A DNA stretch of 64,000 nucleotides from Patescibacteria group bacterium (GCA_031539225.1 JAVKLJ010000003.1:11069-75068); one strand, 5' to 3'. Counted from the first letter of the stretch, positions 1-64,000 are shown. Notes: a model not told the origin generated them from the sequence alone. Numbers and translations: made by a program.

Positions 1-252
1 GAAAAATCCTCGTTCATCGAGTATTCCCTGTTCGATAAGTGCGTCAATATTTTTTGTAGGGAGCTTTTTCTTTGGGAAAGCTTCCTTATTTTGCATATAT
101 CGAGTTCGCTTCTTATAGGAAAGATTGAAGCGAGATTGTTTATTTTCATTTCATGTATAGACAAGTGCTGACTTTTTCTTTCATTTAGAAAGCTTTCGTG
201 CAGCTGCTTGTTTTTTTACGAGTCGTGCAGAGAGTCCGTGACTGTTTGCCAT
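1..252 (-). CDS. hypothetical basic protein; the C-terminal part lies outside the window
   Basis: The minus frame is open from ATG (250-252) to position 1 if TGA=Gly (in-frame TGA at 181-183 and 151-153). It starts MANSHGLSARLVKKQAAARKLSKGKKK. No family recognised. Confidence 0.35.
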
Positions 253-295
253 GAGAAAAAAATAAAAATCAGAAAATATTCAAAATTGTATGAAA

Positions 296-374
296 TGGAG
301 CGGGGGAACGGGTTCGAACCGTCACACCCAAGGGTTGAAGCCTTAGTACACTCACTCTTTTATGTTACCCCCGC
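296..374 (-). tRNA. tRNA with anticodon UCA (reads UGA) and Gly-type identity elements
   Basis: Hand-folded cloverleaf. Acceptor stem GCGGGGG/CCCCCGC, T-arm GACGG-TTCGAAC-CCGTT, anticodon stem TAAGG/CCTTG, loop CUUCAAC (U33, anticodon UCA, A37). Discriminator U73 with G1:C72, C2:G71, G3:C70. Short variable loop and encoded CCA. The D-loop lacks an obvious GG. Confidence 0.85.
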
Positions 375-407
375 TTATACTTTTTTGAGAATGTTTTCAG
401 GAACAAG

Positions 408-481
408 TGGAGGCACCTGCCGGAGTCGAACCGGCCTCCAAAGCTTTGCAGGCTTCTGTATGACCGCTCTACCAAGGCGCC
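408..481 (-). tRNA. tRNA-Cys (GCA)
   Basis: Acceptor stem GGCGCCT/AGGTGCC, anticodon stem GAAGC/GCTTT with loop CTGCAAA, T-arm GCCGG-TTCGACT-CCGGC, discriminator U, encoded CCA. Confidence 0.9.
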
Positions 482-544
482 ACGCTCGGGCATTATAGAG
501 AAAATAGAGAAAAAGCAAGAAAAAATTATGGAAGGGAGGACTAT

Positions 545-1105
545 TTATTTTCCACAATGGAAAGTCGAGAAGAGTTCCTTATACTTGGCTGGATCCTTAT
601 CGAGACCGAGGGTTATATGGAGAACAAATACTTTTGTTCCGCAAACTTTCGCAGTCTGGAGGAATTTCATTCTCTGGCTCGTTGTATTATATCGAGCTTC
701 GAATATATATACTCGAGAAGTATCACTATCATTAAAAGAAATGACATCATCTTGAAGTTTTGTATATTCGAGATAGTTTTTCGTTGTTTGAATATTATTC
801 TTTTCACTATATGAGAGAGAAGTAACGGGAATATCAAGACTATCTTGCATAACAAGCATATTTTGAGAAAAACCATATTTTATCTCAGGTGAAACTCGAG
901 CGAATACAATCATTCCACGATATGGGTGTGGAAGATCTGTATTTTTAACCTCATTCCATGTTGTAGGATAGGAAATACTAAAACCAGTACCAACATACTG
1001 TGAAGATCCATCTACTTTTATTTCAACTTGAGTCCCTGGAAGACTACATGAAACAAGAGCAAACAGAGAGCCGAGAATAAGAAAGGAAAATCGTGAAATT
1101 GTCAT
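545..1105 (-). CDS. putative lipoprotein
   Basis: Complete 186-aa ORF with no TGA. The N-terminus MTISRFSFLILGSLFALVSC is a signal peptide with a lipobox-like LVSC. TAA stop. Confidence 0.7.
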   Translation of the reverse strand: MTISRFSFLILGSLFALVSCSLPGTQVEIKVDGSSQYVGTGFSISYPTTWNEVKNTDLPHPYRGMIVFARVSPEIKYGFSQNMLVMQDSLDIPVTSLSYSEKNNIQTTKNYLEYTKLQDDVISFNDSDTSRVYIFEARYNTTSQRMKFLQTAKVCGTKVFVLHITLGLDKDPAKYKELFSTFHCGK

Positions 1106-1106
1106 A

Positions 1107-1487
1107 CTAAAATATTTTTGAAATATGGGGAATAAGGAACAAAAGTCCTAGGATAGAGAAAACGCCCAGAAGAATATATTGAAAGAGTTTTTTCTGGAGA
1201 GAATACAGAGTCATATAATACTGGCACAAAGAGAATCAGAACCACAAAGAAACAATCACAAAAATGGAATACATATGAAATGTGATCTGACTCATCATTT
1301 CACGAGAAAGCCAAGAGAGATAAAATCACCCAATAGTCGCGAGAAAGAAAGTAAAATAAAGAGAAGCTGTAAGTGCAAATATTCTCTTGGCTACACCGAG
1401 TTCAATATATGCAAGCTCGTCAGGATTCTTATGTATTCTCTCATGAATGTCCTTGATTTTCATCATATATTTATATAATACCGGCAT
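1107..1487 (-). CDS. small integral membrane protein
   Basis: Track fragment 1326-1526 continues through TGA (1326-1328, 1236-1238) to TAG at 1107-1109, just upstream of the lipoprotein ATG. It has hydrophobic segments. Start uncertain (ATG at 1485-1487 or 1464-1466). Confidence 0.5.
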
Positions 1488-1809: not shown

Positions 1810-2835
1810 ATGCTTACGCGATTATCGATCAAAAACTTTCGCTCATGTCCAGCATGGGATTTTTCTTTTTGAAAAAATACGCTCGCATTTGGTCCAAATG
1901 GATCATGAAAAACACATATCCTGGAATGAATTCATATTCTCGCTGGATGAAGTTCTGTGTATGGAAATATACCAATTGATGCAGGAACGCATATAGAATG
2001 ATATTTTAGTGAAAATGATCTCACACAAAAATATACACTCCATAAAGAAGAAACGAAAGAATCCTGGAGCATCAACGGAAGGGTTGGGACAAAAAGCAAG
2101 TATATGGAAAATCTCCCCTTTCGAACCGTTCTCATATCACCATTTGATATGAATCTTCTCTATTTTGAACCAAGTATCAGAAGATGAAGTATGGATAGTA
2201 TTTTAGAAAGATCATTTGCACAATTTCGAAAAATAAAACGAGACTATGAGCTCACGATGAAGCATAGAAATGCTCTTCTCAAAAAAGTACGAGAAGGATT
2301 TGCCAATAAGACAGATATAGACTACTGGGATAAGAAAGTCGGGGAACTCGGTCATATTTATCTCCTCTATCGTGATAAATACAGTGAATTTATCCAAGAA
2401 AATATATGAAATGCCACGGTTCTAGGAACAAAATATGCCATATTTTTTGAATATAAATGAAGCTGTATAGGATATGAAAATCGAGAAGAATGAATAACAC
2501 AATATCTGAAAATAAATAGAGAACGGGATATACTCACGGGACATACCCATATATGACCACATAGAGATGATTTTACATTTTCTATAAAAAATAAAACAGG
2601 AATATACGATGCAGCATCTTTTCTCTCTCGTGGTGAAATGAAAATGCTCCTCCTCGGACTCAAGACACTTGAAGTACAGTTTCTCGAAAAATATACCAAT
2701 ATACCTGTACTTTTACTTATAGATGATATATTTGCTGAACTCGATGAAAAAAATTCTTTTCAATTCATAAATTCTCTTAAAACATATCAAACTATTTTGA
2801 CAAGTCAAAAACCGCATGAAAACAGTGAAAACTGA
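1810..2835 (+). CDS. recF: DNA replication and repair protein RecF
   Basis: N-terminus MLTRLSIKNFRS. Walker A GPNGSGKT, whose last Gly is TGA at 1906-1908. Signature LSRGEMKML and Walker B LLLIDDIFAELD. Track fragments 2191-2409 and 2638-2835 are in the same frame. Confidence 0.85.
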
Positions 2836-2914
2836 GCGGATTTTATTTGCATAAATCTTGAAGATATATAGAATACGCGGGTCAAAATATTATTTCAATT
2901 CATACATTCTTTCT

Positions 2915-4657: not shown

Positions 4658-4930
4658 ATGCCGAACACAAAATCAGCTAAAAAAGCTCTCAAAGTAAGTG
4701 AAAAAAAACGATCTCGAAATAGACACTTTCTTGCTCTTTTGAAAGAAAGCGTAAAGTCTTTCGAAGCGACACTCTCAAGTGAGAAAAAAGATGTAAAGAA
4801 GGTATCAGAAGCATTAAGCCTTGTCTACTCTCGTATTGATACTCTTGAGAAGAAAAATGTTATTCATAAAAATAACGCAGCTCGAAAGAAAAGTTCATTT
4901 GCCAAGCTCGCAAAATCAGTAACAGTCTAA
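4658..4930 (+). CDS. rpsT: 30S ribosomal protein S20
   Basis: MPNTKSAKKALKVSEKKRSRNRHF... Complete ORF with no TGA. Confidence 0.9.
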   Translation: MPNTKSAKKALKVSEKKRSRNRHFLALLKESVKSFEATLSSEKKDVKKVSEALSLVYSRIDTLEKKNVIHKNNAARKKSSFAKLAKSVTV

Positions 4931-4938
4931 TCACGCCA

Positions 4939-5478
4939 ATGCAAAAAAAAGGGTTTCAAAACAAAAAAAATGACAAGAGGATTAATGACTCTATCATTGC
5001 TCGCGAACTCATGGTGATATCTGAAACTGGGGAATCTCTCGGAAAGATGTCTCGTGACCAAGCACTTTCTCTCGCTGGAGAAAAAGATTTGGACCTCGTA
5101 GAGGTAGGCATGCAAGAGGGTATTCCTCTTACCAAAATAGTGGACTATGGAAAGTTTGTTTTTAAACAACAAAAACAAGCCTCTCAAAATAAAAGTCACC
5201 AGAAAAAGACGGAGCTAAAAACGATGAAACTTACCTACAAAATAGGTGATCATGATCTCGATGTACGAAAGTCTCAAGCTGAAAGGTGGGCAAAAGAATG
5301 AAATCCGATGAAAATCATGCTCCAACTCAGAGGTCGCGAAAATCAATACGAAGACCTTGCGTTGGGAAGAATAGAAGAATTTATCGCTTCATTGGATGGT
5401 ATCTATAAAAAAGATACAAATGGAAAAGTTCTCAAACAATGAAATACTTTCAATATCATCCTCTATCCAAAAAAATAA
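4939..5478 (+). CDS. infC: translation initiation factor IF-3
   Basis: RINDSIIARELMVISETGESLG...DLDLVEV...KIVDYGKF, then the C-domain KIMLQLRGRENQY after TGA at 5299-5301. TAA stop at 5476-5478. Confidence 0.9.
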
Positions 5479-5509
5479 TCCAAATAATTTCTAACATTTA
5501 ATTCTTATC

Positions 5510-5707
5510 ATGAAACTCAAAACTCACTCTGGCGCTAAAAAACGCGTAAAAATCACTGGAACAGGAAAATATATCGTCGATAAGACTGCTAAAAGACACC
5601 TCCTCAAAGACAAATCAACAAAAGCAAAAGGTCGTGATAAATATGGTCATGTTCTTCATGATACAAATACTCTTGAAGCACGACTCTCACTTCCATATGG
5701 AAGATAA
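5510..5707 (+). CDS. rpmI: 50S ribosomal protein L35
   Basis: MKLKTHSGAKKRVKITGTGK... Complete ORF. Confidence 0.95.
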   Translation: MKLKTHSGAKKRVKITGTGKYIVDKTAKRHLLKDKSTKAKGRDKYGHVLHDTNTLEARLSLPYGR

Positions 5708-5756
5708 TACTATTTAGAAAATTGATTTTCCTTTAATTTTATAACTCTCTCAAATT

Positions 5757-6101
5757 ATGACTCGAGTAAAACGCGGTGTAATGACCCATAAAAGACATAA
5801 GAATATCCTCGCTCTTGCAAAGGGATATCGTCGAATGAACGGGAATGTCTATTCTCGTGCAAAAACAGCTATCATGAAAGCTGGATCAAATGCTTATATT
5901 GGTCGCAAACAAAAGAAAAGACAGTTCCGTCGTCTTTGGACAGTTCGTCTCAATAACGCAGCTCGTCTCAATGGTATGACTTACTCTACATTTATCCATG
6001 CTATGTATACAAAGCGTGTGGGACTCAATCGAAAGGTTCTTTCAAATCTTGCGATTACTAATCCTGATGTCTTTGCAAAAGTTGTTGAGTTTGTAAAATA
6101 A
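5757..6101 (+). CDS. rplT: 50S ribosomal protein L20
   Basis: MTRVKRGVMTHKRHKNILALAKGYRR... Completes the conserved infC-rpmI-rplT order. Confidence 0.95.
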   Translation: MTRVKRGVMTHKRHKNILALAKGYRRMNGNVYSRAKTAIMKAGSNAYIGRKQKKRQFRRLWTVRLNNAARLNGMTYSTFIHAMYTKRVGLNRKVLSNLAITNPDVFAKVVEFVK

Positions 6102-6110
6102 TCTATATAA

Positions 6111-6140
6111 TACCCCTGACTCAATCAGGGGTATTTTTTA
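6111..6140 (+). terminator. intrinsic terminator after rplT
   Basis: Stem CCCCTGA / TCAGGGG with loop CTCAA, followed by a T-run. Confidence 0.7.
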
Positions 6141-6158
6141 TTTCTATGATAGAACCTT

Positions 6159-6758
6159 ATGGCATCCTTTCTTCTCAATCTTGATACTCATCTTCTTATT
6201 TCAGCAAGAGAACTTGTATGATGAGAATATGCTTCTATAGTACAGCTTTTGGGGGAATTTATCGTTATTTGGGGAATGATAGTCCTTGTATGACTCTGGA
6301 TTTGGGGAGTTTTTCAAAAAAACGAGACGCACAAAAAAGATGCTCTACGAATATTTTTTCTTATACTACTCATATTTATCATATATAGTATAATCAATCT
6401 TGGAGTACCACAGTGGAGGGAAAGTCCACAAATAGTAGCATGAGGTATTAAACCTCTTATCCCACACCCAATCGATAATTCTTTCCCATCATGACATGCT
6501 ATATTTGGAACGACACTTTGCATGGGAATATGGATTTTTGTAAAAAATCGAATACTTCTTGTATCTAGCATAATAATTACACTTATTACGGGAATATCGC
6601 GAGTTATCTGATGAGTACACTACCCTGGAGATATCGTTGGATGAATACTTATTGCAACTATAGGATCATATTTACTCTTCCCTATTGTGCTTTCAAAAGC
6701 TTTTGAATGATATATTTATCCTTTGTGTATAAAGATTGCACGAGTATGTAAATTATAA
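6159..6758 (+). CDS. PAP2-family phosphatase (undecaprenyl-diphosphatase-like)
   Basis: Motifs NSFPSGH (the Gly is TGA at 6492-6494) and SRVIGGVHYPGDIVGG (three TGA). Multi-pass membrane protein. TAA stop at 6756-6758. Confidence 0.8.
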
Positions 6759-9873: not shown

Positions 9874-9985
9874 GGGAGAGAGAAATATCGAATAAAGAAA
9901 TTATATGTATGATTGTATGATTTTTTGCAAAAAAGAAAAATATATGATAGGCTTTATTGGTAATCTATTTTCTATCTATTGGTTT

Positions 9986-10813
9986 ATGCGAAAAATACTC
10001 TCCTATAGCGTGATTGCTATCCTCGCGATGCACATCACTGTGAGCTTCTGAAATGCTGAAGAAAACATCGATCTCAATTCTGCGCCCATCGAACAAGTAG
10101 CTCCTATATCTGATGGAAACGGTGGTACATATAGTACTTGGGAACTCATGCATCGGACATTTATGCTCGATGGATTTACATGGACAGGTGTCGTCGCTGA
10201 ATATATTACTCCACATATGTGGACAGGAATATCAGATATCCTTAGTATAGACAATGGGGCAATATACCCTCTCGAACCAACAAACTATACTGAGTGTGTA
10301 CAATTCGAGATGAACGCTTCATTTGGAAGTGATGGCTCTATGATAGAATCAACACCAACTGCCGAGCTCAAAAACCTCGCAAAATACTGTGCAACAGAAT
10401 TCTATGGTGACTACTTTAGTGGGAAAAAGTATACAACTCGTGAAGAGATGACTATGTTCCTCCTCACAGCTCTCGGGGAAAATGTCAGCCTCGAAGGTGA
10501 ATTTGTAGATGGAGCATTTGTCACAAATGGAACTGAAACAGAAACTCCATTTAACAATGTCGTCAAAACTGCATGGTATGCGCCATTCCTCGCTCGTGGA
10601 ACTGAGGTAGACCTCCTCGCATCGACTCCACCTCGTTGGAATACTGCCCGAGAAGTATCAGATACTGATATTATGAGCATGCTTCAAGGATACTTTGGGA
10701 CAGATGAAAGTGATATAAATAATCTTGTAAAGGCATTGATTTCTACTAACTGAGTATTACTCAATGCACCAACTCCTATTGAGAGTACAAATACTGGGGT
10801 AATTACACAATAG
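9986..10813 (+). CDS. secreted protein with an SLH-like segment
   Basis: Signal-like MRKILSYSVIAILAMHITVSFGNA. Contains KYTTREEMTMFLLTALG. Track ORF 10148-10753 is extended on both sides through TGA. TAG stop at 10811-10813. Confidence 0.55.
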
Positions 10814-10878: not shown

Positions 10879-11928
10879 ATGGAACTCGCAAAATTCCTCA
10901 CACTCATGGACACAGTTATCGACAAGCAATTTTTCGATCTCCATATCACTCCAAACAGTTCTCCATATGTGAGAAATAGTATGTGAGAGATTGTGCAAAT
11001 GACTGAATTTGAAGTCATATCCAATGAGGATATCAAAGAAATTTGTACAATGCTCCTATCTCGTCCATTTACCGAACGCACCCTCGATATTTCATTTGAA
11101 TATAGAGATACTCGTTTCCGTGTGAATCTCTCACATATCCTCAGATGAATTAGTCTCACATTTCGTATGATACCGAGCGTGATACCATCGGCTGAGGAAA
11201 TAGGCCTTTCTCCATATCTCCTCGAACTCTCGCTCTCAGAGAAATGAATCATCCTTATCACAGGACCGACAGGAAGTGGAAAAACTACGACTATGGCGAC
11301 GATGATAGAGTACATCAACGCTCATACAAAAAAACATATCGTCACACTCGAAGATCCAGTAGAATTTGTCTATAAAAATAAACAGTCTCTCATACATCAG
11401 CGGGAGCTCGGAAAACAATTTGATACATTCGCTGATGGTATCAGATCAGTGCTTCGTGAAGATCCTGATGTCATCGTCATCGGAGAAATGCGTGATCTCG
11501 CAACGATAGAAGCAGCCATCACACTTGCAGAAACAGGACACCTCGTCCTCTCGACACTCCATACAAATGATACTGTGCAAACGGTAGACCGCATCATACA
11601 ATCATTCCCTGCTGGTATGCAAAATCAGATTCGGATGCAATTTGGACTCTGTATGCGTGCTATCATATCACAAATGCTTCTTCCGAAAAAAGATGGAAGT
11701 GGACGAGTTGTAGCAAGAGAAATCATGCTCGCAGATGACTCAGTTCGTAATCTCATCATCCGCGGAGAAACTCAAAACATGTACTCTGTACTCGAAATCT
11801 CAAAGCAAAAATGAATGATGCTCATGGATGATGCAATCATCTATCTCTATAAAAAATGATTTGTTGATAAAAGTACTCTAGAAGTCACGATTCGAGATAG
11901 AAGTCGTCTAGAAACTATGCTCGGATAA
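10879..11928 (+). CDS. pilT: type IV pilus retraction ATPase PilT
   Basis: EKGIILITGPTGSGKTT (TGA at 11245-11247), IVTLEDPVEF, DPDVIVIGEMRD, TGHLVLSTLHTN. Confidence 0.9.
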
Positions 11929-12025: not shown

Positions 12026-15000
12026 ATGGCAAAGGTAAAAATCATACTCGCCTATATTACTCTTCTCTGTTTTTTCTCAACTGAGGGGATTTTACCGATT
12101 TTTGCTGATGAGTGAATAGAACTCCATTCACTCGATGAACTACCGAGTTTTCATAAAGAAATAGATACGGCTCTCGATAGTATGGAAGAGAAAACTACCG
12201 AATGAGAGAAAGAAAATACAACAATACCAAAAACCGAAGAAACTGAAACGACATCTCAGTTCATCGTCGAATGACTTCCAAAATACGACGAAACAACAAA
12301 TCTCGATGCATGGTTTGACAATATGAGTGCTCTTGTGCGCATGGGGATAGTAAAAAGAAGGATCATAAAATCTCTCGGACTTCCATGAGACAATAGCATC
12401 ACGGTAAATATCGTAGATGGAACTGAGATACGAACAAAAGACTTCGAAAAAGTACACCTCGATACACTCACAGTAGATGCATCAGCAAAAGAAAAAGCGA
12501 AAAAAACATTTCACTTTGGTCTCACAGGTAAACATCTCATATTTTCAAAGGCTGTAGAAATCAAAGCAAAAGTATCAGCAAAAGATGGAGAACTCGTAGA
12601 TATACAAGTAAAACATGCTGGAGATAAAAATTTTAATACTGCAGGGCTCTCGACTCATATCGAAACCAGCTGTAATGCAGACTGAAGTGCGAGCATCCCG
12701 AGCTCAAGTGCAATGGTCGAAAATGGAACTATTACATTTTATACCTGTGGAGCGAGTACATTTATTCTAGGTGCATGAGGCGCTGGATCATTATCTCTAT
12801 GGTTTCAAGCTGGGTCTGGTATGACTCTATCAGGGACAAATCTATCATTATGGAACGACCTATCAGGAAAATGAAACAATGCAAGCCAAGTAACGACATC
12901 AGCACAACCAAAATATGTAACAGGTGTAGTAAACGGAAATCCTATAATTCAGTTTAATGCAACGACACAATATATGCAGGGTACAAAAACAGGGACTTAT
13001 CAGACAGTGTTCGCTGTTAGAAATCTTCCCACTACAGGGTATCAGTATCTCTTCTCAGCTCCTGCATTATCAGACTTCTCCATAAGGGCAGCTGGTGGAT
13101 ATAATGGAACATCTGTTATGACATACACCGACGGACCAAATGGTTGAGATTGGTCTTTTGGATGAACTCTTGCAATAAATAGTCTTATAACAAATACCGG
13201 GAAAGTATGATATCATATTATCCGGGATACCTCTTCCTCTCCAGTTTCGAATACAACTTATTCAATCAGTAATACATTTATGTCTCGATGAATGACTGGA
13301 TGAGATTGAGTTGCAGAAATATTAGTATATTCAGGAACACTCAGTGCTACAGGGACAAATCGTATCGAATCCTACCTCGCTCTCAAATATGGTATCACTC
13401 TCGATCAGACAACAGCAACAAACTATACCCTCTCGGACGGCAGTATCGCATGGAATGGTACAGTCGCAGGAACATATAAAAATGATATTGCAGGTATCGG
13501 GCGAGATGATGCTACCACGCTCAATCAAAAGAAGTCACAATCTATAAATAATCCTGGGGATATCATAGTGGAAAGTACTGGGGGATTTATAACAAATCTC
13601 AGAGTTCTCTCTTGGGCAAATGATGGAACTGCCACAGGAACATGGATCACCTCAGAAATACCAACGACGAATCTCATGGGACAAAATGTCTATTCTCGAA
13701 TCGCTCGAGAATGGAAATTCCAGGAACCAATAGCAGATATCGGTGGGGTAAATATCTCATATCCAGTAACAGCTCTCCCTAGTGGTGGAACTGGAAGCAT
13801 ATATATGCTTGTGGATTCAGATGGAAATTTTTCAAACGGAGGAACGACATTTGTAGCAGGTACTCTTTCTGGTTCAAACTATGAATTCGCGACAAATATC
13901 ACCAATGGATATGTGATTACATTTGCACAATCAACTGGTATAGATCTCTGGCTCAAGGCAAATTCAGGAACAAATTGTAGTACAGCATCATGTAGTGTCT
14001 TATCATGGGTTTCTCAAAATGGGAAAAAAGCAACAGGAACAAACAATCCTCTCTACATAACAAGCTCATCTGTATTCAACTTCAACCCTTCTATAAGTTT
14101 TAATGGTGCTGGAACAAGTGGAACACCAACAGGAGCATACTTTTCACTTCCATCTGGATTCGACAAGTATAGTGCTGGTCTCACTACATATGTGGTCGCG
14201 AGACCATCTAGTACAAATAGTTACGCAAGGTTTTTTGACTTTGGAAATTGAAGTTCATCAAATAATATTGCATTATTTAGAGTTGGTACAACTGATAGTT
14301 TATGATATACATCATATCCTGGAACAACAGGAGTGGGAGATATTACAAGTATAACATGAGTTATCGTAAATAATCAAACAAACATATTTGGTGCTCGCCA
14401 AGCAAGCCTCTCTACAAACGCTAGCATGATAAAAAATGGTAAAATTATAACAAACGGTACTACTGGAATAATTGGAAATGTCACTCGTACGCTGAACTAT
14501 ATAGGGCGGAGCAACTGGAACGATGCAATGTATGGTGGTGCAATCGCTGAAATAATTATTTATAATAGAGATATAACTGCTGTGGAAAGAAATAAGATTG
14601 AAACATACCTCGCTCTCAAATATGGTATCACCCTCGATCAATCAACAGCAACAAACTATACCCTCTCAAATAATGGAAGTATTGCATGGAATGGAACAAC
14701 AGCAGGAACATATAAAAATGATATTGCAGGTATCGGGCGAGATGATGCTACCACACTCAATCAAAAGAAGTCACAATCTATAAATAATCCTGGGGATATC
14801 ATAGTGGAATTCACCGGAGCAACATTACTCAATCTCAGGACTCTCACCTGGGCAAATGACTGAACAGCGACAGGGGCATGGATAAATACTGAAAATCCTC
14901 CTGGATATAAACGAATAAGCAGAGAATGGAAATTCCAGGAAGCACTCGGGGATATATGATCAACAAAAATATCATATCCAGCAAGCTCTATACCCACATG

Positions 15001-15880
15001 AAGTACTGGATCAATCTATCTTTTTGTCGATATTGATGGAAATTTTTCAACTGGTTCAAATGTCGTAACTGGTTCACTTGTTGGAGCTAACTATGAATTT
15101 GGGATAAATATGGCAAGTGGGAGCTATGTTACTTTTGGATACAAAGATCTCACTCCCCCAATCATTAATATATCTGGTGTATCAAGTGGATCACTCCTTC
15201 CTATAGGCAACTGAGCCATAAACTTTATATATAGTGATGCTGATTCAGGTATTTCAACAGGCTCACTCTCTGTAACTCTTCAGCGATATAATAGCACACT
15301 TCTAGCCTATGATAGTGCCACGGGATGACTCACAGAATCATGAAGCCGTACACAAAGCGGATCGATATGGAATATGAACAATATTGGGTTTTGAAAATAC
15401 AAACTCACAGCAACTATAGCTGATAAAGCCTGAAATACTACGAGTACAGGAATAGTATTTTTCATAGATCAGATAGAATGGACGATCGACAGAGATACCT
15501 ATAATGTATGAGATATTTCTCCGGGAATATCGACATTTGGAACTGGACAGATAACGATAACTATAAAAACAGTATGAGCAGGCTTTACACTCTCATCGAC
15601 TTCTGGAAATTCTCTCGCATCAACAGAATCAAATAGTATCAACTATTGGAATGGAACAAACGGATGGTGATATGATCTGTGGAATGGTTCAGCATGGACA
15701 AATACTATCACGAGTCACTCACCAAATGCCACACTTGCAACAACTCCAGCAAATCTCAATCAAAATGGAGACAAAAATACTTATACATACAAAATACGCT
15801 ACGGCACAAAGCTCGATGAAATGCAGTCGGCATGACAATATATCGGAACAGTAAATTTTCAGATTGGAGTTTCTTACTAA
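12026..15880 (+). CDS. 1284-aa exported protein with two LamG/concanavalin-like (Laminin_G_3-type) modules and a C-terminal Ig-like region
   Basis: Signal peptide MAKVKIILAYITLLCFFSTEGILPIFA. The hallmark AEI(L/I)(V/I)Y(S/N)..(L/I)...(G/E)(T/R)N(R/K)IE(S/T)YLALKYGITLDQ occurs twice. The length is divisible by 3 and in frame with track ORFs 13568-14251 and 14426-14863. Many in-frame TGA. TAA stop at 15878-15880. Confidence 0.75.
13373..13573 (+). repeat. intragenic direct repeat, copy A
   Basis: About 200 nt that is roughly 90 percent identical to 14606-14809, including two identical runs of more than 50 nt each. Confidence 0.85.
14606..14809 (+). repeat. intragenic direct repeat, copy B
   Basis: Partner of 13373-13573, offset 1233 nt (411 codons), with a 3-nt indel. 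Confidence 0.85.
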
Positions 15881-17982: not shown

Positions 17983-18058
17983 TGGTGCACCCAGTAGGGT
18001 TCGAACCTACAACCAACGGTTTCGAAGACCGCTACTCTTCCAATTGAGCTATGGGTGC
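17983..18058 (-). tRNA. tRNA-Arg (UCG)
   Basis: GCACCCA acceptor stem, anticodon stem GCGGT/ACCGT with loop CTTCGAA, T-arm AGGTTCGAACCCT, encoded CCA. Confidence 0.85.
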
Positions 18059-41601: not shown

Positions 41602-41975
41602 AGAAAAGTAGGTTAAAAAAAATAAATGCGGTAAACCACCGCGGCGGGGACAGTGACAATCTTGGTCAGAGATTATCGGGTTTTGAAATTCTCTGGTCAG
41701 GAGAATCTCACCAAGCCACTTTTTTACAAGTGGTAAGGTTAAAGCTTTAACCTCAAGTTACATACATAACGAGAGGACAGACAGGGTATTTCATGAAAAA
41801 ATATACCTTCTTTCCTCCCCTTATATAGCGGTAAAGAAGTGACCAAAGCTATTATGAGCGTGATGTTAAAGAACGCCACGACACGAAGAACGCGCCGAGA
41901 TTACGCGGAAATATTATGGAGTATTGGCTTAAAGTCAAATAAAAGTAGGTCATCTTCACTCTCATTTCACGAAAG
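41602..41975 (-). ncRNA. GC-enriched structured leader or unclassified RNA element upstream of the S-layer-like gene
   Basis: A series of hand-foldable helices: GGTTAA-AGCT-TTAACC, CCACTT-GTAAAA-AAGTGG, CTTGGT...ACCAAG enclosing CAGAGA...TCTCTG, and a long GGGGAGGAAAGAAGG...CCCTGTCTGTCCTCTC hairpin. No ORF. Confidence 0.4.
41612..41642 (-). terminator. terminator-like hairpin at the 3' end of the leader, about 10 nt (to the end of the T-run; about 26 nt from the stem) upstream of the S-layer ATG
   Basis: Minus strand: GCGGT-GGTTT-ACCGC followed by ATTTATTTTTTTT. Confidence 0.4.
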
Positions 41976-42294
41976 AAAAAATTTTTACAATAAATAACAA
42001 TAAACGCAATTCCTTTGTTTTCTGATATTTAAGAGGAAAAAAAGAAAAAGTAAAAAAAGAATTCTATTTTGTTGTTTTTTTTATACAATAAGAGAGCTAC
42101 AGAAAAGATTCGAGCGTAAAGAGAACCGAAAAAACACAATAGAAAAGAATAAAAAGAAAAATAACAATCTTCTTCCAAAAAAAACGAAACACAATTCTCG
42201 CACCCATGTGAGAGAAAGTCTCATAAGATTTTCTCTCATAAGAAAAAATCGATACTTTTTCGTATGCGTTATACTCAATAAATTTATACCCGAT

Positions 42295-46897: not shown

Positions 46898-48175
46898 TTA
46901 TATAAAACTATCAGGAATAGGAAATTCATGCGCAAGAGATCGAATCTTTTCACGAATGATAGATTTTTTTCAGGCATCATCTTTGTTTTTCATCGCTTCT
47001 ATCATAAGCTCGGCAACGAGTGCTGATTCGTTCTCACCGAATCCTCTTGTTGTGATGGCAGGTGTCCCAAAACGAATACCTGAAGGATCAAACATCGTTC
47101 TTGGCTCATCAGCAATAGAGTTTTTATTGAGAGTGATGCCTACTTCATCGAGGACATTTTCTGCTTCTTGTCCAGTGATACCAAGTGAACCATAGACATC
47201 AGCCAAGATAAGATGATTACTCGTTCCACCAGCAAGCATACGAACATTATGTGCGTGAAATACATTTTCCATCGCTTTTGCATTTTTTAGAATTTGCTGT
47301 GCATATGTCTGAAATGCCGGACTGAGTGCCTCACCGAAAGCGACAGCTTTCGCAGCAATCATGTGCATATGTGGGCCTCACTGAAGTCCTGGAAATATCG
47401 ATTTGTCGATTTTCTTTGCGATCTCTTCACTCTCTCGAATGAGGATGAGCCCTCACCGAGGGCCACGAAGTGTTTTATGTGTTGTTGTTGTGATAACATC
47501 AAATCCATAATCAAATGGATTTTTTACAGCTTTTCCAGCAATCAGTCCTGCAATATGAGCCATGTCAGCCATCGTATATGCTCATACCTCTCGAGCAATA
47601 TCGACAAATTTTTGGTAATCAAGTTCTCGTGAATATGCTGAAAATCCTGCGAGAATAAGCTTTGGCTTTTCACGAAGTGCTGTTTCTCTGAGTGCCTCAT
47701 AGTCGATTTCTCCAGTATTTGGATCTTTCATTTTATAGCGAATGAAATTGAAGCTCTTTGTAATATGCGTCACTGGATGCCCGTGTGTAAGGTGTCCCCC
47801 ATGAGAGAGATCCATACCGAGAATAGTATCTCCAGGATTACATAGAGCGTAGTATGCAGCTATATTTGCGGGAGCACCAGAATGCGGTTGGACATTTGCA
47901 TATTTTGCACCAAAAAGCTGACACGCTCTTTCTATAGCGATTTCTTCTATTTTATCAGTAAACTCCTGTCATCCATAATACCGCTTGTGTGGATATCCTT
48001 CGCTGTATTTATTGGTAAAAACAGAACCCATAGCTTCGTGTGTTGCACGAGAAACATAGTTTTCAGAGGGGATGAGTTCGAGACCATTTTCTTCTCGATT
48101 TTCTTCACCTCGTATGAGTTTTGCAACTTCGCTATCTTGTTTTTCGATAAATGGAATATTTTGTGGTGTAGACAT
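46898..48175 (-). CDS. glyA: serine hydroxymethyltransferase
   Basis: [19 protein letters not shown] (second Gly is TGA at 47969-47971), [25 protein letters not shown]. Confidence 0.95.
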
Positions 48176-52588: not shown

Positions 52589-54013
52589 ATGCAATTTCCT
52601 GTTGTAAATGTTATCGCTGATATAAAAAGTGTCACAAAAGATGCACACTTGGTATTTGAAATTTCTTCACAAAATACACTAGGCTCTCTTCCAGAAATGG
52701 GACTTTCCCTTCTTCAGAAACAAAAACTTTTAGAAAATTTTGAAAAAAATGATATAGAAAAGAGAAAAACAATTACTTTTTCCCATATCCATGCTGATTC
52801 TCAGAGTATTGGATTCTTTTTTCCTGGAAAAGATGTCCTTTCTGATCGTTGTGAATTGTTTACTTCCTGGAAAGAAAATACAGTATTTGTACCTGATGGT
52901 GATGAAGTTGAGGCTTATGAAGCACTTACACTTTGTTCTTATAGATTTGAAAAATATCTTTCAAAAAAAGAAATAAAAAATCATAGTATTGTTATTTCAA
53001 AAGAGAAGCTTTGATGAATTCAGGAAAAAACACACCTTCTTGAGGCTATTTTCTGGGCGCGAGATATGATCAATATGCCACCACAAGATGCAAATCCTGA
53101 GAAACTGGTGCAAGAAATCCTCGCACATACATGGAACCATTTTGATGTGGAGATTTTTGATAAAACAAAGCTCGAAAAACTTGGTTGCAACCTCCTGCTT
53201 GCTGTATGAGCTGGAAGCAATTTCCCACCATATATGGTTATTCTGAGTCCAAAGAATCCTCCAAAAGGAGACAAATATGGTCTTATCGGAAAATGAGTCA
53301 CATTTGATGCTGGTGGAATCCAAATAAAACCAGATACTGCTATGCTCGATATGAAGTGTGATATGTCATGAGCTGCTGGTATGATAGGGGTTGCTCGATA
53401 CTTAGATGCTCTTCCAGAGCTTCCGGCCAATATTATTATCGCTATTGGTCTCACTGAAAATATGACAGGATGAAGTGCATTTAAACCACTTGATATATAT
53501 AAGGCTTATAATGGTACAACAGTCGAAATACATCATACTGATGCTGAGTGAAGGCTCGTTCTCGCTGATGTAATGTCATATGTCGAAGATACATACAATG
53601 TTGACCATCTTATCACTATGGCGACACTCACAGGCGCCTGTGTATATGCACTCGGACATGATATAGCTGGGATTATGGGTGATGATGAAGATGTTATTTC
53701 GACACTTCTTTCGACAACTTCGCCATATGAAAAAGTATGGAGACTTCCACTCAATGAAAAACTCAAAAAATCACTCAAAGCAGATATTGCTGATCTTAAA
53801 AATGTCGCAAGATCTGAGAAAGCAGGATCATCTATTGGCTGAGCATTTCTTTCATATTTTCAGGGAAAGGCGAAACTCACACATCTCGATATAGCTTGAC
53901 CTGCATATAGAGAAACCCAATTTTGATATATGCCAAAATGAGGAACTGGCTGGTGAGTCAAAATTCTTTCAGATTTTTTCTTGAAAAATAGTGAAAAATG
54001 AAACAATATATAG
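52589..54013 (+). CDS. pepA: leucyl aminopeptidase (M17)
   Basis: LIGKGVTFDAGGIQIKP (Gly is TGA at 53294-53296), MKCDMSGAAG, NTDAEGRLVLAD-type HHTDAEGRLVLAD. Confidence 0.9.
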
Positions 54014-54661: not shown

Positions 54662-57493
54662 ATGTCAGAAACTATTGATATTATCTGAGCAGAAACACAC
54701 AATCTCAAAAATATCTCAGTATCCTTTCCAAAAAATTCACTTGTCGTTATTACTGGTGTTTCTGGTTCTGGAAAATCCTCACTTGCTTTTGATACACTCT
54801 ATGCTGAGGGACAAAAACGATATCTTGAATCTCTTTCGACCTATGCTCGAATGATTATATCAAACATCTCTGAGGCAACTCGTGTTCGTGAAATTCGAGG
54901 ACTTTCACCGACCATAGCAATACACCAAAAAACAGTTTCAAACAACCCTCGTTCGACAGTTTGAACAATCACTGAGATATATGACTTCTATAGACTTTTA
55001 TTTGCAACAATAGGAAATCCCCATTGTCCAAATCATCCAGAAATACTTCTCAAGAAAAGTACTCTTCAAGATGTTGTCGAAACAGTGTCGAAGTTTGTCG
55101 AAGGTACAAAATTTCATATCCTCGTTCCCCTTCCAGATGGTGAGTATAGAGAAGTTGCGGATGTTGCAAAAAAAGTGACTGATATGGGTTTTGTGAGATT
55201 CCAAATTTGAAATCATACTTTTTCTGTAGCGGATTTTGAGGAACAGGATATTTCTCAAAAAGAAAAAATATTTGTCGTTATCGATCGACTTGTAGTCAAA
55301 AAAGATGATGCATTCCATGTGCGTCTTACTGACTCTATTCGAGTAGCACTCGAACATGGTGGACAGATGGTTTCTTTATATGGGGAGGATTTTGGTTTTG
55401 TAGATTTTTCTTTTCACGCCGCTTGTCCGGAGTGTCATTTTTCCCTCCCAGAAGTTACGCTCTCGAATTTCTCTTTTAATTCACATCATGGTGCGTGTGA
55501 TGTGTGCCATGGACTCGGATCATCTACTACATTCCTAGAGGCTGATGTCATCAGCTCTGGGCTCAGTCTTGCCGAATGAGCAATTCTCCCATGGCAATCC
55601 CATCCATACTATACTCTTCTTTTAGAGGCTGTATGTCTGAAAGAGGGTATTCCATTTGAGAAATCATGGAAAAGCCTTTCAGAAAAAGACAAAAAAAAGA
55701 TTCTTTATGGTGTTCCTGGGAGCTTTGAGATTTCCTATATAGGGAAACACAACGACGGGAAAATACATAAATCGAAGTATGAGTGACTTATTCCAAATCT
55801 CGAACGCAGATTTGTCGAAGCAGAAAGTGCAAATGATGCGTATATGAAACGAATTGCTAACTTCGCCACCGAGCAAATTTGTCGAAGTTGTGAAGGATAT
55901 AGACTCCAGAAACCATTCCTGAGTATACGAATCAAGTGAAAAAATATTGGCGAACTTGCATCTATGAGTGTCGAAGATTCTCGAATATTCTTTCATGATC
56001 TTGTCCTGAATGCTTCAGAACAACATATCGCTGCGCCAATCCTCAAAAATATTACTGAACGGCTCGAATTTCTTGCCGGAGTCTGACTCGAATATGTTAC
56101 CCTTGCTCGACGCGCCAATACACTCTCATGAGGTGAATCTCAGCGAATCCGTCTGGCGACGCAGATAGGAACGAGACTCGAGTGAATCATCTATGTTCTC
56201 GATGAGCCATCTATATGACTTCATCCACGAGATAATGATATGCTTACTGCCAATCTTAAGAGACTTGCTTCTATAGGAAATACTGTCATAGTTGTCGAAC
56301 ATGACGAAGATATCATGCGAGAAAGTGATTATATTGTCGATATTTGACCTGGTGCTGGAGTACACGGGTGACAAGTATTATTTTCTGGTACATATAAGGA
56401 ACTTCTCAAATCCGATACAGAAACTGCCAAGTATCTCTGAAATATCAAAAAAGTTCAAAGAAAGAATCCTGTCACAAAAGCACCAAAGCAATTTATAGAA
56501 ATATATGGTGCAAGAGAAAATAACCTCAAAAATATAAATGTACGAATCCCTCTAGAATGTATGACCGTTGTTACTGGTGTTTCTGGTTCTGGAAAGTCCT
56601 CTCTGATTATGGATATTTTGGCGAATAAGCTCCTCAATTATTTTAATGGTAGTTCTATATCCGTCTGACAACATGACCGTGTCGAAGGTATGGCGAATGT
56701 CGACAAGACAATTATTATAGATCAGTCCCCTATTGGAAAAACGCCACATTCGAACATCGCCACATATACGGGAGTATTTACTTTTATCCGTGAAGTATTT
56801 GCGGCTTCACTCGATGCGCAGAAGCGAGGTTTCTGACCGGGAAGATTTTCGTTTAATACGAAGGGAGGTCGATGTGAGGTATGTGAAGGAAGTGGTACGA
56901 AAAAAATAGAGATGCACTTTCTCCCTGATGTCTATGTCGAATGTGAGTCATGTTCTGGAACTCGCTACAATCCTGAAACTCTTCAGATACAATTTAAGTG
57001 AAAAAATATCGCCGAAGTGCTCGATATGACTGTCGAAGATGCTCATGAATTTTTTGCAAATTTTCCGCGTATTCGTCGCGTACTCGATGTCCTCGTGGAT
57101 GTCTGACTTGGGTATATCCGTCTTGGACAATCAGCACCGACACTCTCAGGTGGTGAATCTCAGCGTATCAAACTCGCATTTGATCTCGCGAAGCGCTCAA
57201 CAGGAAAAACTCTCTATATCCTCGATGAACCGACAACAGGACTCCATTTTTCTGATGTACAGAAGCTCCTTGATATCCTTGATAGACTCGTCGAAAAAGG
57301 AAATACCGTATTGGTTATCGAACATAACCTCGACATCATCGCCAATGCGGATGCCATCATCGACATAGGCATGGAGTGATGACACAGATGAGGAAATCTC
57401 GTATTTGCATGACCTCGTGATAAACTCCTCTCTGTCGAAGAAAGCTATACCGCGAAGGCACTCAGAAGGTATATGGAAAATAAAAAATCATAG
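54662..57493 (+). CDS. uvrA: excinuclease ABC subunit A
   Basis: Two ABC modules ([12 protein letters not shown] twice, LSGGESQR twice) and zinc-finger Cys pairs. Confidence 0.95.
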
Positions 57494-59568: not shown

Positions 59569-59572
59569 AAAA

Positions 59573-61084
59573 TTAGGTTCATCGATATGAGAGTGCCTCA
59601 AGTATATGTTTTCATTCGACAAATTCAACATTATCTATATCTGCTATCGTACGAGCAACGCGGAGTATCCTATAGTATACTCGAGTTGAGAGTTTGAGTT
59701 TTTCTGTCGAAGATATGGCGATAGAAATTGCTTCTTCTTTTATTGATGCGAGTTTTTCTATGTCGATGTTCGACATTTCAGAGTTTGAGTGAATCTTTTT
59801 GCCAGAGAATCGAATTGCTTGTTTTGCACGAGCTTGCATCACGATTTCTTTCATTTGTTTGCTCGACATACTTCCTTTCTTGGCTCAAAGTTCTCCTACT
59901 TTTACTCGTGGAACCTGTATAAAAATGTCTACTCTATCGAGAATCGGGCCAGAGAGGCGAGACCGATATCGTTCGATCGCGAGTGGCGAACATATACAGG
60001 GTTTTTCAGGATCCCCCATAAATCAGCATGGACATGGGTTCATTGCACCGACGAGTGAAAATCGAGCTGGATACTTACATGATTGATTGACCCGATTGAT
60101 GGTGATTTCGCCATCTTCGATAGGCTGTCTGAGTGTTTCTAGAAGTGATTTACTAAATTCTAGAAATTCATCGAGAAAAAGGACTCACTTATGGGCGAGG
60201 GATATTTCACCTGGTTTTGAGTCTCGTCATCATCCGATGACAGATGCTTCACTCGCTGTATGGTGAATGATGCGAAATGGGCGATCTTCGACAAGTGGGA
60301 AGTTTTTTGTCAAAAGTCATGCTACCGAATATATTTTTGAAAGTTCAATCTTTTCCTCCAGATTCATATCAGGAAGTATGCCTGCAAGTGCCTTTCCGAG
60401 CATTGTTTTTCCAGATCCTGGAGGTCATTGCATGAGGATATTATGCCCGCCAGCTGCGGATATGAGGAGTGCTCTTTTTGCGTGTTCTTGTCCGATAATA
60501 TGTGAAAAATCCACATTATGAAAATGTGATAGGGAATTACTCTGTTTTTTATAGAGAGTTTTTTCGATTGATTTCTCTCCTGTGAGCATCGAGATACAGT
60601 CTTTTAGATTTTTTATACCGATAATGTCGACATCTGGTATGACAGATGCTTCCTCGGTATTGTCCATTGGCAAAAAAACTCGTTTTTTGCCGAGTTCTCT
60701 TGCGAGTATCGCAACAGGGAGTGCTCATTGTATGGAACGAACGGCTCCATCGAGTGCGAGTTCCCCGACAAAGAGTGATGATTCGAGGAGATCGTGTGAG
60801 AATTCTATCTCTTTTCCGAGGATTCAGAGGGCGATAGGGAGATCATAGAGTGGTCATTTTTTTCTGAGATCTGCTGGTGCGAGATTGACTGTGATGCGAG
60901 CTCAGCCAGGAAATGCATATCCAGAGTTTTTGATAGCACTGCGTACGCGTTCACGAGACTCTTGAATAGCAGTATCACCGAGTCATACAACCGTAAACTG
61001 TCACATGCCTGTGACGACATCAACCTCGACTTCTACGATATTTCCAGAGATTCATGAGAGTGATGCAGAGTAGAGTTTTTGCAT
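59573..61084 (-). CDS. comM: YifB/ComM Mg-chelatase-like ATPase
   Basis: [42 protein letters not shown]-terminal HILEALSYR reached only by reading TGA at 59612-59614 as Gly. Confidence 0.9.
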
Positions 61085-61246
61085 GAGAATATTTTAAGAT
61101 ATCCAGAAATATTATGAGAAAAATGAAAAAATAAAAGTCTTTTTTAATAAAAATAATTGTAACAAAAGTATAACATTTTGGCTTTGCATAAATAAAATGA
61201 GTGTATTCGCTTTTGCATAAAAGTATAAATTGATTATAAGTGTACC

Positions 61247-61948
61247 ATGCCTCTTTTTTTTCAAACATTCATCTGAGATGAAATTCTTTCTTGTTATTCA
61301 ACAACTGACGATATTTCCAAGCGGAAAATGTTTTTGCTCCATGGTGCATGACAATCTGATAAAAAGAGGCTTATTGGTATCTCAAAATGGTTTTCCGAAA
61401 GGGGAATTGAGGGTGTTGGTTTTGATTTTTCATGACATGGCGAAAGTACAAAAAATACCGTTTGATCAATCAAAAAAAGAGTTCTAGAAGCTGAGCATAT
61501 TATCGATAACTACTTTTCTCCTGAACAAGAGATTTTTATTTGTGCTTTTAGCATGAGTGGACAAGTGACATACGAGCTTCTGAGAAAGTTTGGTTCAAGA
61601 GTAAAAATATGTTTTCTTTGCGCACCTGCACTCTATCATAAAGATGCTATGAACATGCCTTTTTCGGAAGAATTTTCTCGCATTCTCCGTATGCCAGAAA
61701 GTTATAAAAATCATGGCGTGAATGATGTTTTGTCAGTTTATCGCGGAGATATAGTTATCATCATGGGAACTGAGGACAGTGTCATACCAAAAGATGTTCC
61801 TGATATTATCATAAAAGCACATACAGGATGAAAAAATAAAAAAATCATTCTCCAAAATGCTCCTCATATGCTGGCTGGTTGGACCATGAAATCTCCTGAA
61901 AATATGGAAAAATTATGTCAGACTATGCTGGATGAGATAAAAAAATAA
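61247..61948 (+). CDS. alpha/beta-fold hydrolase
   Basis: LLHGAGQS, FDFSGHGES, nucleophile elbow FSMSG. Confidence 0.65.
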
Positions 61949-62176
61949 ATTTTCCATTTCTCTTTTCCACCACTTTTTCTCCATCTGTAAAGCCAAAATA
62001 TACGACAATATTTTGTGAAATGTGAGCCATATGCTAATATGTTCAGTATGAAACACACTCTTTACGCTCTCATTTGATTTTTCTCGATATATTTCGATAC
62101 AGCATTTGCTATTTCGACCCGTGTAGCAACATCTACAGAAAAAGCAAAATCGTCTTTTTTTGATGATACTTTAAAT

Positions 62177-64000
62177 ATGTTTTCCCTTATAGGAAAGCAT
62201 GCCTGGGATATGATCATGTTTGTATTGATTGTATGGATTTTGCTTCGAATTATTCGACTGACATACGAAGTTCTCACGACTGATCGTATTGTCTATATGC
62301 GAATTACACTTCCTCGTGCAGATTCTAAACTCGATAAAGAAAAAGAAACAAAAAAAGACTTCAAGGAAAAGATTGGTATTATGACAGTTTTTTATAAGTC
62401 GATTCACAATATCACTCAATCGAGTGCCTGGGATACAGTCATGAATTTTATCTTTCGACATGCAAAAATCTCGTTTGAAATATTTTTTCATGATGGACAA
62501 GTACACTTCTATGTGGCAGGATACAAGGAACATGCGACTCTTCTTATACAGCAGATTACATCAAACTATCCTGATGCAGAAGTAAAAGTCATCCAGAAAA
62601 AAGATATGCCTGAGATCAAGCCTCTTGGCTATACTCTTCAAGCGGCTTCTATCGGAAAAAGAACAGATGATGTCTATCCAATAAAAACCTATAAATACTT
62701 TGAAGATGACCCACTTTCGAGTTTTACTAATAACTTTGGTTCTCTCAAAAAGACTGATGTTGCCTGTATGCAGTTTGTTCTCAAACCTCTTGGGCATAGC
62801 TGGAACAAAAAAGCTAAAAAAGCTGCAAGCCTCGTCGCCAAAGGTGAATATAAAAAATGAATCAAATTTGGGATTTTTGGAACAGCTCTTCATATTCTCA
62901 TTACACCGATTTCTTGGGTATTTTATCGTTTTCTCAAAAATGAAGAAACGAGTACCAATGCTCCTGGTGCATCAAGTGGTGACTCATATAAGATATTTAA
63001 TCAGGCAGAAACAGAGGCACAAAAAATGGTCGGTGAATCAGCAGGACAACCAGCTTTTCGTGGTTCTATACGCATTCTTGTATCTTCAGATACTCCATCA
63101 TCAGCAAAAAATGGACTTTCTACTCTTGTATCTGCGACAAATATATTTACTGATGAGTACAATAATCAGCTCGAAAATCCGCAAATGATAGAAGATCCAC
63201 TCAGGTTCATATTTACACCACTTCGGTATTTTGCGTATAGGTTTCGATTGGTATGAGTATTTCAAAATATCTCTGTATTTTCGACGGATGAACTCTCGAC
63301 CATGTTTCATTTTCCTGATATCCAATACAACAAATCGCCTATCATTTCGTGGCTCGACTATAAGATGCTTTCGACTCCACAAAACCTTAAAACACCAAAA
63401 GATCCACTTATTCTCAAGGACTATAAACGCGATACTGCTGGCAATATCTATACGCAAGATGGTTCTCTCCTCCAGGTAGATTCAAATAAAAACCTCAAAA
63501 GAGATTCAAATAAAAACCTCATTCTTCTTGATGGGACAACGATTCCATGTTTTACTGAGTGAGAAAATATAGGAAGACCAACTGATGAATGAAAGGTGCC
63601 AGTTCAGATGGATCAGCAGAGAAAACTCTGAGGGTTTCCACTCTATACAGATGCTGTTCTCATGTGATGGAATGAGTATCGAAATCAGAAAACGCCAATA
63701 TATTTTTCAAAAAAAGACAGAGGAAGACATCACTATATCATCGGTAAATCTGGTTGAGGTAAATCGGTATTTATCGGATACCTTGCTCGTCAGGATCTCT
63801 GGGCTGGAGCTGGACTTGGTGTGATTGACCCGCATGGGGATCTCGTAGAGGATATTATTGCCTATACACCAAAAGAACGCGCAAAAGATATGATTATCTT
63901 TGATCCTGCAGACTATGAACGACCAATGGGGCTCAATATGCTCGACATCATCGCGACGGATCCGGCACTTCGTTCTATAGAAAAAGATCGTGCAGCGCTC
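62177..64000 (+). CDS. second VirD4/TraG-like coupling-protein ATPase paralog (3' end outside the window)
   Basis: Same architecture as 30533-32971: transmembrane helix, RITLPRADSKLDKEKETKKDF, FHFP motif, Walker A GKSGGGKSV, VIDPHGDL. An in-frame ATG at 62048 would add a 43-aa signal-like extension. Confidence 0.7.

Follow-up and report, generated by a model that had tools for sequence, protein, structure and literature searches.

NCBI genetic code 25, with UGA as a glycine codon, in a 64-kb chromosomal segment of a Gracilibacteria-type bacterium

The NCBI table 25 code (the "Candidate Division SR1 and Gracilibacteria code"), in which UGA is read as glycine and UAA and UAG are the sole stops, was reportedly described by Campbell et al. 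(2013, PNAS) and Rinke et al. (2013, Nature). The glycine assignment was confirmed by proteomics in a BD1-5 bacterium (Hanke et al. 2014, PMC4032931), gene prediction with prodigal -g 25 is routine for the clade (PMC8406219), and the recoded groups have been united as the GTDB class JAEDAM01 (PMC13092985). We analyzed a 64,000-nt chromosomal segment (the window; positions 1 to 64000; 37.5% G+C) from a Patescibacteria group bacterium (GCA_031539225.1, JAVKLJ010000003.1), for which an earlier reading of the sequence (the original prediction) had proposed TGA as a glycine codon throughout. We conclude, with near certainty, that the window derives from an uncultured bacterium of the Gracilibacteria type and is translated with NCBI genetic code 25, in which UGA is a fifth glycine codon served by a dedicated tRNA(UCA). 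It shares with the described table 25 organisms the glycine reading of UGA, UAA and UAG as the only stops, a tRNA(UCA) with tRNA-Gly acceptor identity, a low G+C content, membership in the candidate phyla radiation (CPR), and nearest relatives that are Gracilibacteria metagenome-assembled genomes (MAGs) with in-frame TGAs. Nothing in the window differs in kind from table 25, on the assumption that release factor 2 (RF2) has been lost and that the tRNA is charged with glycine. Code 25 is therefore already known here, having been described in 2013, and is not novel.

Reading TGA as a sense codon restored the reading frames of the window. In a mechanical tiling with open reading frames (ORFs), table 11 yielded 100 ORFs (median, 102 amino acids [aa]) covering 60% of the window, compared with 53 ORFs (median, 321 aa) covering 94% when TGA was read as sense. 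Control tilings with TAG (75% coverage; median, 111 aa) or TAA (73.5%; median, 121 aa) as sense did not restore the ORFs. Only TGA thus has this effect, which far exceeds chance. Our gene map, built by coding log-odds tiling, comprises 51 genes and 18,425 codons. It contains 339 in-frame TGAs, with at least one in 44 of the 51 genes, in agreement with the original prediction that almost every recognizable gene is split at TGA under the standard code; all six TGA positions cited in that prediction are in-frame TGAs, with the frame, the strand, and the quoted motif correct. A length-greedy tiling had counted 430 TGAs, a number inflated by antisense shadow ORFs (362-1135, plus strand; 1107-1793, minus; 36369-38060, plus; 38653-41616, plus; and 42097-43713, minus), which were rejected for their negative codon-usage scores. 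TGA is missing from seven genes, namely, those for S1, S20, L20, L34, and L35, a lipoprotein-like ORF of 186 aa, and an SLH surface protein of 960 aa. All complete genes terminate at TAA (35 genes) or TAG (14 genes), the two stops that had been predicted. Glycine makes up 8.1% of the codons when TGA is counted as glycine and 6.3% when GGN codons alone are counted. These results confirmed TGA as a sense codon throughout the window.

To identify the amino acid, we masked each TGA as X in eight window proteins, aligned these to solved structures of proteins from standard-code organisms, and inspected the alignments visually. Masking and solved references were used because relatives translated with table 25 would make an inference of glycine circular; large protein homology searches, in which the top matches are such pretranslated relatives, were deliberately avoided for the same reason. 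Glycine was found opposite 46 of the 78 residue-aligned TGAs in the best solved reference. Tryptophan was found opposite none of these 78 positions in any displayed reference, and cysteine was found opposite one (in the RecF alignment).

In the alignment of UvrA (54662-57493, plus strand; 21 TGAs) with 2r6f over residues 6 to 940, 17 of the 21 TGAs faced glycine, including those in LSGGE and GPGAG. The alignment of ComM, an Mg-chelatase-like AAA+ protein (59573-61084, minus strand; 16 TGAs), with 8rxd spans residues 12 to 502 of 503 and crosses 15 TGAs, with glycine opposite 9 of the 14 that were residue aligned; it runs through the C-terminal ALSYR segment, part of the C terminus HILEALSYR cited in the original prediction as reached only through TGA. 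For the serine hydroxymethyltransferase (SHMT) encoded by glyA (46898-48175, minus strand; 5 TGAs), four of five TGAs faced glycine in the best of the two references (7v3d and 3pgy), and the TGA at 47969-47971 corresponds to the second glycine of YYGG. In the M17 leucyl aminopeptidase (LAP; 52589-54013, plus strand; 13 TGAs, of which that at 53294-53296 lies in GKGVTFD), the proportion was 5 of 12 in the best reference and 10 of 12 when any of the three displayed references (6ome, 8pz0, and 3h8e) was considered. The PilT-type pilus retraction ATPase (10879-11928, plus strand; 5 TGAs) gave one of four with its best reference and four of five with the second (6ojx and 2ewv), and the TGA preceding LITGPTGSGK (11245-11247) faced glycine in both structures. 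In RecF (1810-2871, plus strand; 11 TGAs), glycine of 5z67 was opposite 3 of 10 TGAs (residues 33, 47, and 251), and the glycine of the Walker A motif (GxxGxGKT) is encoded by the TGA at 1906-1908. The catalytic region of a large subtilase-domain protein (23311-27279, minus strand; 41 TGAs) had glycine opposite four of seven TGAs; the one at 25240-25242, the glycine of GTSMA adjoining the catalytic serine, faced glycine in both 3vv3 and 1dbi. For the PAP2-family phosphatase (6159-6758, plus strand; 9 TGAs), three of five TGAs faced glycine, and those in PSGH (6492-6494), SRxxxGVH, and DxxGG all did so in 5jki and 7f18, to which the matches are weak (E value of about 0.01). Thus, the six motifs in which the original prediction had placed TGA on a conserved glycine all have glycine at that position in solved homologs.

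Profile scores pointed in the same direction. We scored proteins against Pfam with X, G, or W placed at each TGA, and glycine exceeded tryptophan by a total of 89 bits over ComM, LAP, and PilT. The difference was 47.4 bits for the three ComM domains together, 38.4 bits for Peptidase_M17 on LAP (326.0 versus 287.6 bits), and 3.3 bits for T2SSE on PilT (150.4 versus 147.1 bits). The longest table 11 fragments covered 27 of 207 profile positions in ComM and 94 of 310 in LAP (13 to 30%), whereas the read-through proteins matched end to end. With X at the TGAs, the methionyl-tRNA formyltransferase Fmt (34117-35052, plus strand; 13 TGAs; Formyl_trans_N, 1 to 179 of 181; Formyl_trans_C, 1 to 99 of 100), SufB, and a TrxB-like reductase also matched their profiles end to end. 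The comparison of profile coverage between codes that had been proposed as a check therefore favored read-through with glycine, and of the outcomes named beforehand as contrary to it, TGA at tryptophan positions and full-length homologs under table 11 were not seen. The window also holds an internal comparison, in the form of two type IV secretion system (T4SS) coupling-protein-like NTPases, one at 30533-32872 (minus strand; Pfam DUF87, T4SS-DNA_transf, and TrwB_AAD_bind) and the other at 62048-64000 (plus strand), which runs past the window end. In a BLASTP alignment of these paralogs, all four TGAs of the conserved block paired with GGN in the other copy, and the pairing of TGA with GGN was reciprocal in the Walker A motif.

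We extended the comparison to relatives with pyrG, the CTP synthase gene (21685-23268, plus strand; 7 TGAs). A PyrG scan with one genome per GTDB species gave 77 loci, from which the raw pyrG codons were read. Loci with at least 55% identity to the window had 1 to 17 in-frame TGAs each, except L043 and L070, and no in-frame TGA was found in pyrG of the outgroups at 54% identity or less. Per-locus ORF coverage rose from 0.52 under table 11 to 0.93 with TGA as sense in the window, in line with the behavior of these relatives, whereas coverage of standard-code outgroup loci was about 0.9 under either code. By this measure, L043 is recoded and merely lacks TGA in pyrG. We aligned the pyrG codons of the window and 50 loci (51 recoded sequences) with those of 20 outgroups that use the standard code; 69 columns of this alignment had TGA in some sequence. 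Among the 33 of these columns that were at least 80% conserved and not gaps in the outgroups, 29 were glycine. These glycine-conserved columns held 158 TGA codons, and the codons elsewhere in the clade were GGA (894), GGT (417), GGG (326), and GGC (271). The invariant tryptophan column of PyrG was TGG in 49 recoded sequences and TGA in none, consistent with the claim that tryptophan is still encoded by TGG. In the window itself, three of the seven pyrG TGAs were on columns that were glycine in 18 to 20 of the 20 outgroups, and at each of the seven positions the codon chiefly used by relatives instead of TGA was GGN.

A Codetta-style likelihood, calculated with a hidden Markov model (HMM) built solely from the 20 standard-code PyrG outgroups, assigned the 355 TGAs of the 51 recoded sequences to glycine (+430 bits; serine, +38 bits; tryptophan, -546 bits). 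The code-inference check suggested with the original prediction thus selected glycine. The seven TGAs of the window gene gave +5.3 bits for glycine and -10.9 bits for tryptophan, and the control codons GGA, GGT, TGG, CGA, AGA, AAA, and GAA were all decoded correctly.

The nearest PyrG relatives (64 to 80% identity) were MAGs titled Candidatus Gracilibacteria, nearly all of them with TGAs in pyrG. Other record titles included a few TPA "Peribacteria" and "Patescibacteria group" entries and one Absconditabacteria entry at 64%. The closest PyrG among GTDB species genomes had 80% amino acid identity, so there is no close species representative. By this single marker, the source organism is probably Gracilibacteria-type, in GTDB class JAEDAM01 of the Patescibacteriota/CPR. 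The original prediction had placed it in the Absconditabacteria (SR1) and Gracilibacteria part of CPR; PyrG upheld the recoded clade and pointed to the Gracilibacteria type rather than the SR1 type.

Some relatives with a G+C content of 53 to 60% are still recoded (L030, L032, L033, L040, L045, L065, L070, and L076). Most of these have one or two TGAs in pyrG (L070 has none), and their ORF coverage under table 11 is already about 0.84 to 0.91. TGA is rare in such genomes, and the alternative code is easily overlooked.

A candidate decoder of UGA, tRNA-Gly(UCA), is encoded at 296-374 (minus strand), inside the window, although it had been missed in the first reading. The gene was detected by ARAGORN and by Rfam (RF00005; 45.8 bits), and a tRNA-Cys(GCA) gene, also found with both, lies directly upstream on the same strand (408-481). 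The tRNA(UCA) gene spans 79 nt and encodes the CCA; the acceptor stem has 7 bp and the T stem 5 bp, the variable loop consists of four bases, and the anticodon loop reads C-U-UCA-A-C. Its identity elements (G1:C72, C2:G71, G3:C70, and U73) are exactly the set of Escherichia coli glyT, whereas trpT of the same species carries A1:U72 and G73, and its selC, at 95 nt, has a long extra arm and G73. The same four elements served Shulgina and Eddy as glycine-acceptor criteria for the tRNA(UCA) of this clade, after Giege 1998 (PMC8629427). Relative to tRNA-Gly(UCC), the anticodon has A instead of C at position 36. In a scan of the 77 pyrG loci, we found one match to the tRNA(UCA), in L025, and no canonical tRNA-Gly. 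The L025 homolog is 95% identical and has all four glycine elements; its T-stem changes preserve pairing (A-U to C-G and G·U to A-U), and its acceptor pair 7:66 changes from G-C to G·U. Judged from these sequences, the pair-preserving changes look like those of a functional gene under selection. The anticodon stem of the window tRNA can be extended to 6 bp via C26-G44, and its Rfam score is the lowest among the five tRNAs of the window.

In the decoding scheme that we favor, glycyl-tRNA synthetase (GlyRS) would charge the tRNA(UCA) with glycine via the acceptor-stem and discriminator identity elements, and the charged tRNA would read UGA as glycine, as the alignments indirectly indicate. RF2 would be absent, as the literature on the clade implies, leaving no rival termination at UGA, and RF1 would terminate at UAA and UAG, which is consistent with the observed stops. 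Two nonrecoded "Gracilibacteria" genomes have RF2 and lack the tRNA(UCA) (PMC8629427). No release-factor gene was recognized among the genes of the 64-kb window.

Several points weigh against this interpretation. In the best structural reference, residues other than glycine (A, S, K, D, P, L, and others) stood opposite 32 of the 78 aligned TGAs; the positions concerned fall in variable regions, as is expected for any codon. The per-codon glycine score of TGA in the window PyrG (0.76 bits) was lower than those of GGA (1.5 bits) and GGT (2.4 bits). Adjacent G18 and G19, as usually found, are missing from the 10-nt D loop of the tRNA(UCA) (AAAAGAGTGA). We produced the gene map with a script of our own; a number of its start codons are in doubt, and the second tiling omitted some membrane-protein genes. 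RF2 loss and charging by GlyRS are inferred from the literature, and the window spans only 64 kb. Finally, the placement leans on PyrG alone and on record titles, some of which read "Peribacteria."

One competing explanation of the restored reading frames is genetic code 4, in which TGA is tryptophan and is decoded by a tRNA-Trp(UCA). Code 4 is used by Mycoplasmatales, Entomoplasmatales, and some insect endosymbionts. Its users (Mycoplasma, Spiroplasma, Hodgkinia, Nasuia, Zinderia, and Stammera) resemble the window in having a captured UGA, a low-G+C reduced genome, and a tRNA(UCA), and RF2 is regarded as dispensable in both cases; code 4 would also restore the ORFs equally well, and both the G+C content of 37.5% and the presence of a tRNA with anticodon UCA would suit it. 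Every result that separates the two amino acids nevertheless opposed tryptophan: it faced none of the 78 aligned TGAs, it lowered the Pfam scores by 89 bits and had a PyrG likelihood of -546 bits, the conserved tryptophan column of PyrG was never TGA, and the tRNA(UCA) has G1:C72 and U73 instead of the A1:U72 and G73 of trpT. We therefore consider code 4 highly improbable; the window differs from it in that UGA is glycine and in that the tRNA derives from tRNA-Gly, not tRNA-Trp. Selenocysteine (Sec) recoding, with 296-374 as a tRNA-Sec and the in-frame TGAs as Sec codons, has in its favor that ARAGORN names this gene tRNA-SeC(tca). That label appears to come from the anticodon alone, Rfam places the gene in the general tRNA family and not in tRNA-Sec, and its 79 nt, 7/5 acceptor and T stems, 4-nt variable loop, and U73 are unlike the 95 nt and G73 of selC. 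Moreover, 339 TGAs spread over 44 genes at glycine positions, with cysteine opposite only 1 of 78, leave Sec recoding with a negligible probability. Nearly every gene does look broken under table 11, as would be expected of a standard-code sequence damaged by pseudogenization or by sequencing or assembly errors. We nevertheless give such damage the least credence of all: the frames are interrupted by TGA alone and never by TAA or TAG, frameshifts are not needed, TGA returns at the same columns in dozens of independent MAGs and alternates there with GGN, independent assemblies hold identical genes, and a matching decoder tRNA is present.

A further alternative concerns not UGA but the extent of the recoding. 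Shulgina and Eddy (2021, PMC8629427) predicted an extended code, in which UGA is glycine and CGA and/or CGG are read as tryptophan, in the sister clade Absconditabacteria (SR1) and in some members of the Gracilibacteria. The window resembles the Absconditabacteria in reading UGA as glycine via tRNA-Gly(UCA), and CGG is rare in it (26 codons), which leaves room for a weak or ambiguous reading of that codon. CGA, however, is its commonest arginine codon (111 per 10,000 codons), and the CGA codons of the window PyrG decoded as arginine (+20.6 bits with the outgroup HMM). Six of eight checked CGG codons were on conserved arginines in solved homologs, and none was on tryptophan. The tRNA-Arg(UCG) at 17983-18058 (minus strand) has A20 and A73 and is of the arginine type by the published criteria (PMC8629427), not of the Absconditabacteria tryptophan type. 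The extended code is thus very unlikely for the window, which uses plain table 25 with CGA and CGG as arginine and differs in this respect from the Absconditabacteria. The window thereby helps to delimit the debated second reassignment. Two distant loci (L049 and L051) have CGA at the invariant PyrG tryptophan column, which is tryptophan in 20 of 20 outgroups; they have about 55% PyrG identity to the window, "Peribacteria" titles, and 7 to 17 in-frame TGAs. Their codon use matches the Absconditabacteria-type reassignment of CGA to tryptophan predicted with Codetta and points to wrong record titles.

TGA was unevenly distributed among the genes of the window. A set of likely highly expressed genes, encoding the SLH protein, S1, NusA, S20, L20, L34, L35, and IF3 (38698-41580, 18645-19769, and 27439-28524, all minus strand; 4658-6101, plus strand; and 30231-30470, minus strand), used TGA for 3 of 185 glycine codons (1.6%), compared with 336 of 1,311 (25.6%) in the other genes (Fisher P = 5e-18; P = 1e-8 with the SLH surface protein left out). 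The low-TGA set favors GGT. The SLH-domain surface protein (38698-41580; 960 aa) uses GGN for all 89 of its glycine codons (binomial P = 1e-10), the rpsA-like S1 gene (18645-19769) has no TGA among 34 glycine codons, NusA has 1 in 26, and S20, L20, L34, and L35 have none. The SLH assignment follows a public gene call on contig L080, in which Pfam SLH is a weak match. In relatives, TGA makes up 3% and 2% of the glycine codons in the orthologs of S1 and NusA, respectively, and 11 to 18% in PyrG, PilT, RluD, and other neighbors. We considered horizontal transfer of the SLH gene from a standard-code organism and rejected it as unlikely because the gene has native codon usage (the highest score in the window) and a low G+C content at third codon positions (0.20) and because the core genes for S1 and NusA show the same avoidance.

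It is possible, although we hold it to be rather doubtful, that UGA is a second-class glycine codon in this clade. Decoding by tRNA-Gly(UCA) could be slow or error-prone, whether through low abundance of the tRNA, wobble of U34 onto UGG, reading of UGA by near-cognate tRNA-Trp, or residual termination. If so, the captured UGA codon would still be under purifying selection in highly expressed genes. The avoidance may instead be ordinary translational selection for GGT. A shallow literature search found no report of avoidance of TGA as a glycine codon.

Upstream of the SLH gene is an intergenic region of about 700 bp (41581-42294), with a divergent RNase Y gene on its other side. This region probably holds a strong promoter and a leader.

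The significance of the code for this segment is practical rather than conceptual, given that standard gene prediction chops the genes and that about 50 full-length genes were recovered with code 25. Public table 11 gene calls on the same DNA (L002, L081, and L082) break PyrG into pieces of 261, 60, and 99 aa and NusA into 260 and 97 aa, and they report T2SSE (PilT) at 170 to 173 aa, Pth at 88 to 112 aa, and IF3_N at 120 aa; YidC is also reduced to a stub. The statement that any table 11 annotation of this DNA is invalid was thus borne out, and contigs on which TGA was read through (L001, L083, and L080) have full-length genes. Recognition of code 25 leads to placement in the Gracilibacteria, and users of these records should repredict the genes with table 25. 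They should also be aware that the decoder tRNA is misnamed as tRNA-SeC by a standard tool (ARAGORN).

Both kinds of gene calls occur within one sample (SRR25831492, Logan assemblies), in which L002, L081, and L082 are fragmented and L080 (contig 2352) has full-length read-through genes; automated gene calling thus did not settle on the same code for all contigs. On a JGI contig (3300081900, Ga0672987_0001015; L083), the S1 and L20 proteins are identical to those of the window. The same contig has a 511-aa gene at 4935-6470, whereas the ORF at this place in the window (approximately 9900-10813) is about 270 to 300 aa long, a difference of about 650 bp. A closely related strain, and not the same one, thus seems to be the source of the public contigs.

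Two further genes contain repeats. A membrane protein gene at 33000-33887 (minus strand) encodes three repeats of T4SS_pilin (PF18895), and a GD[DE]E..KK.K motif comes after each of them. It adjoins the coupling-protein-like NTPase gene at 30533-32872 (minus strand), the paralog of which is at the window end (62048-64000, plus strand). Taken together, the pilin repeats and the two NTPases suggest that this CPR bacterium has an apparatus of the type IV secretion or conjugation-like kind. Directly downstream of pilT, a gene at 12026-15880 (plus strand) encodes a 1,284-aa DUF8202 protein with a long internal duplication, in which a segment of about 60 aa occurs twice in almost the same form (YLALKYGITLDQ..ATNYTLS...WNGT.AGTYKNDIAGIGRDDATTLNQKKSQSINNPGDIIVE).

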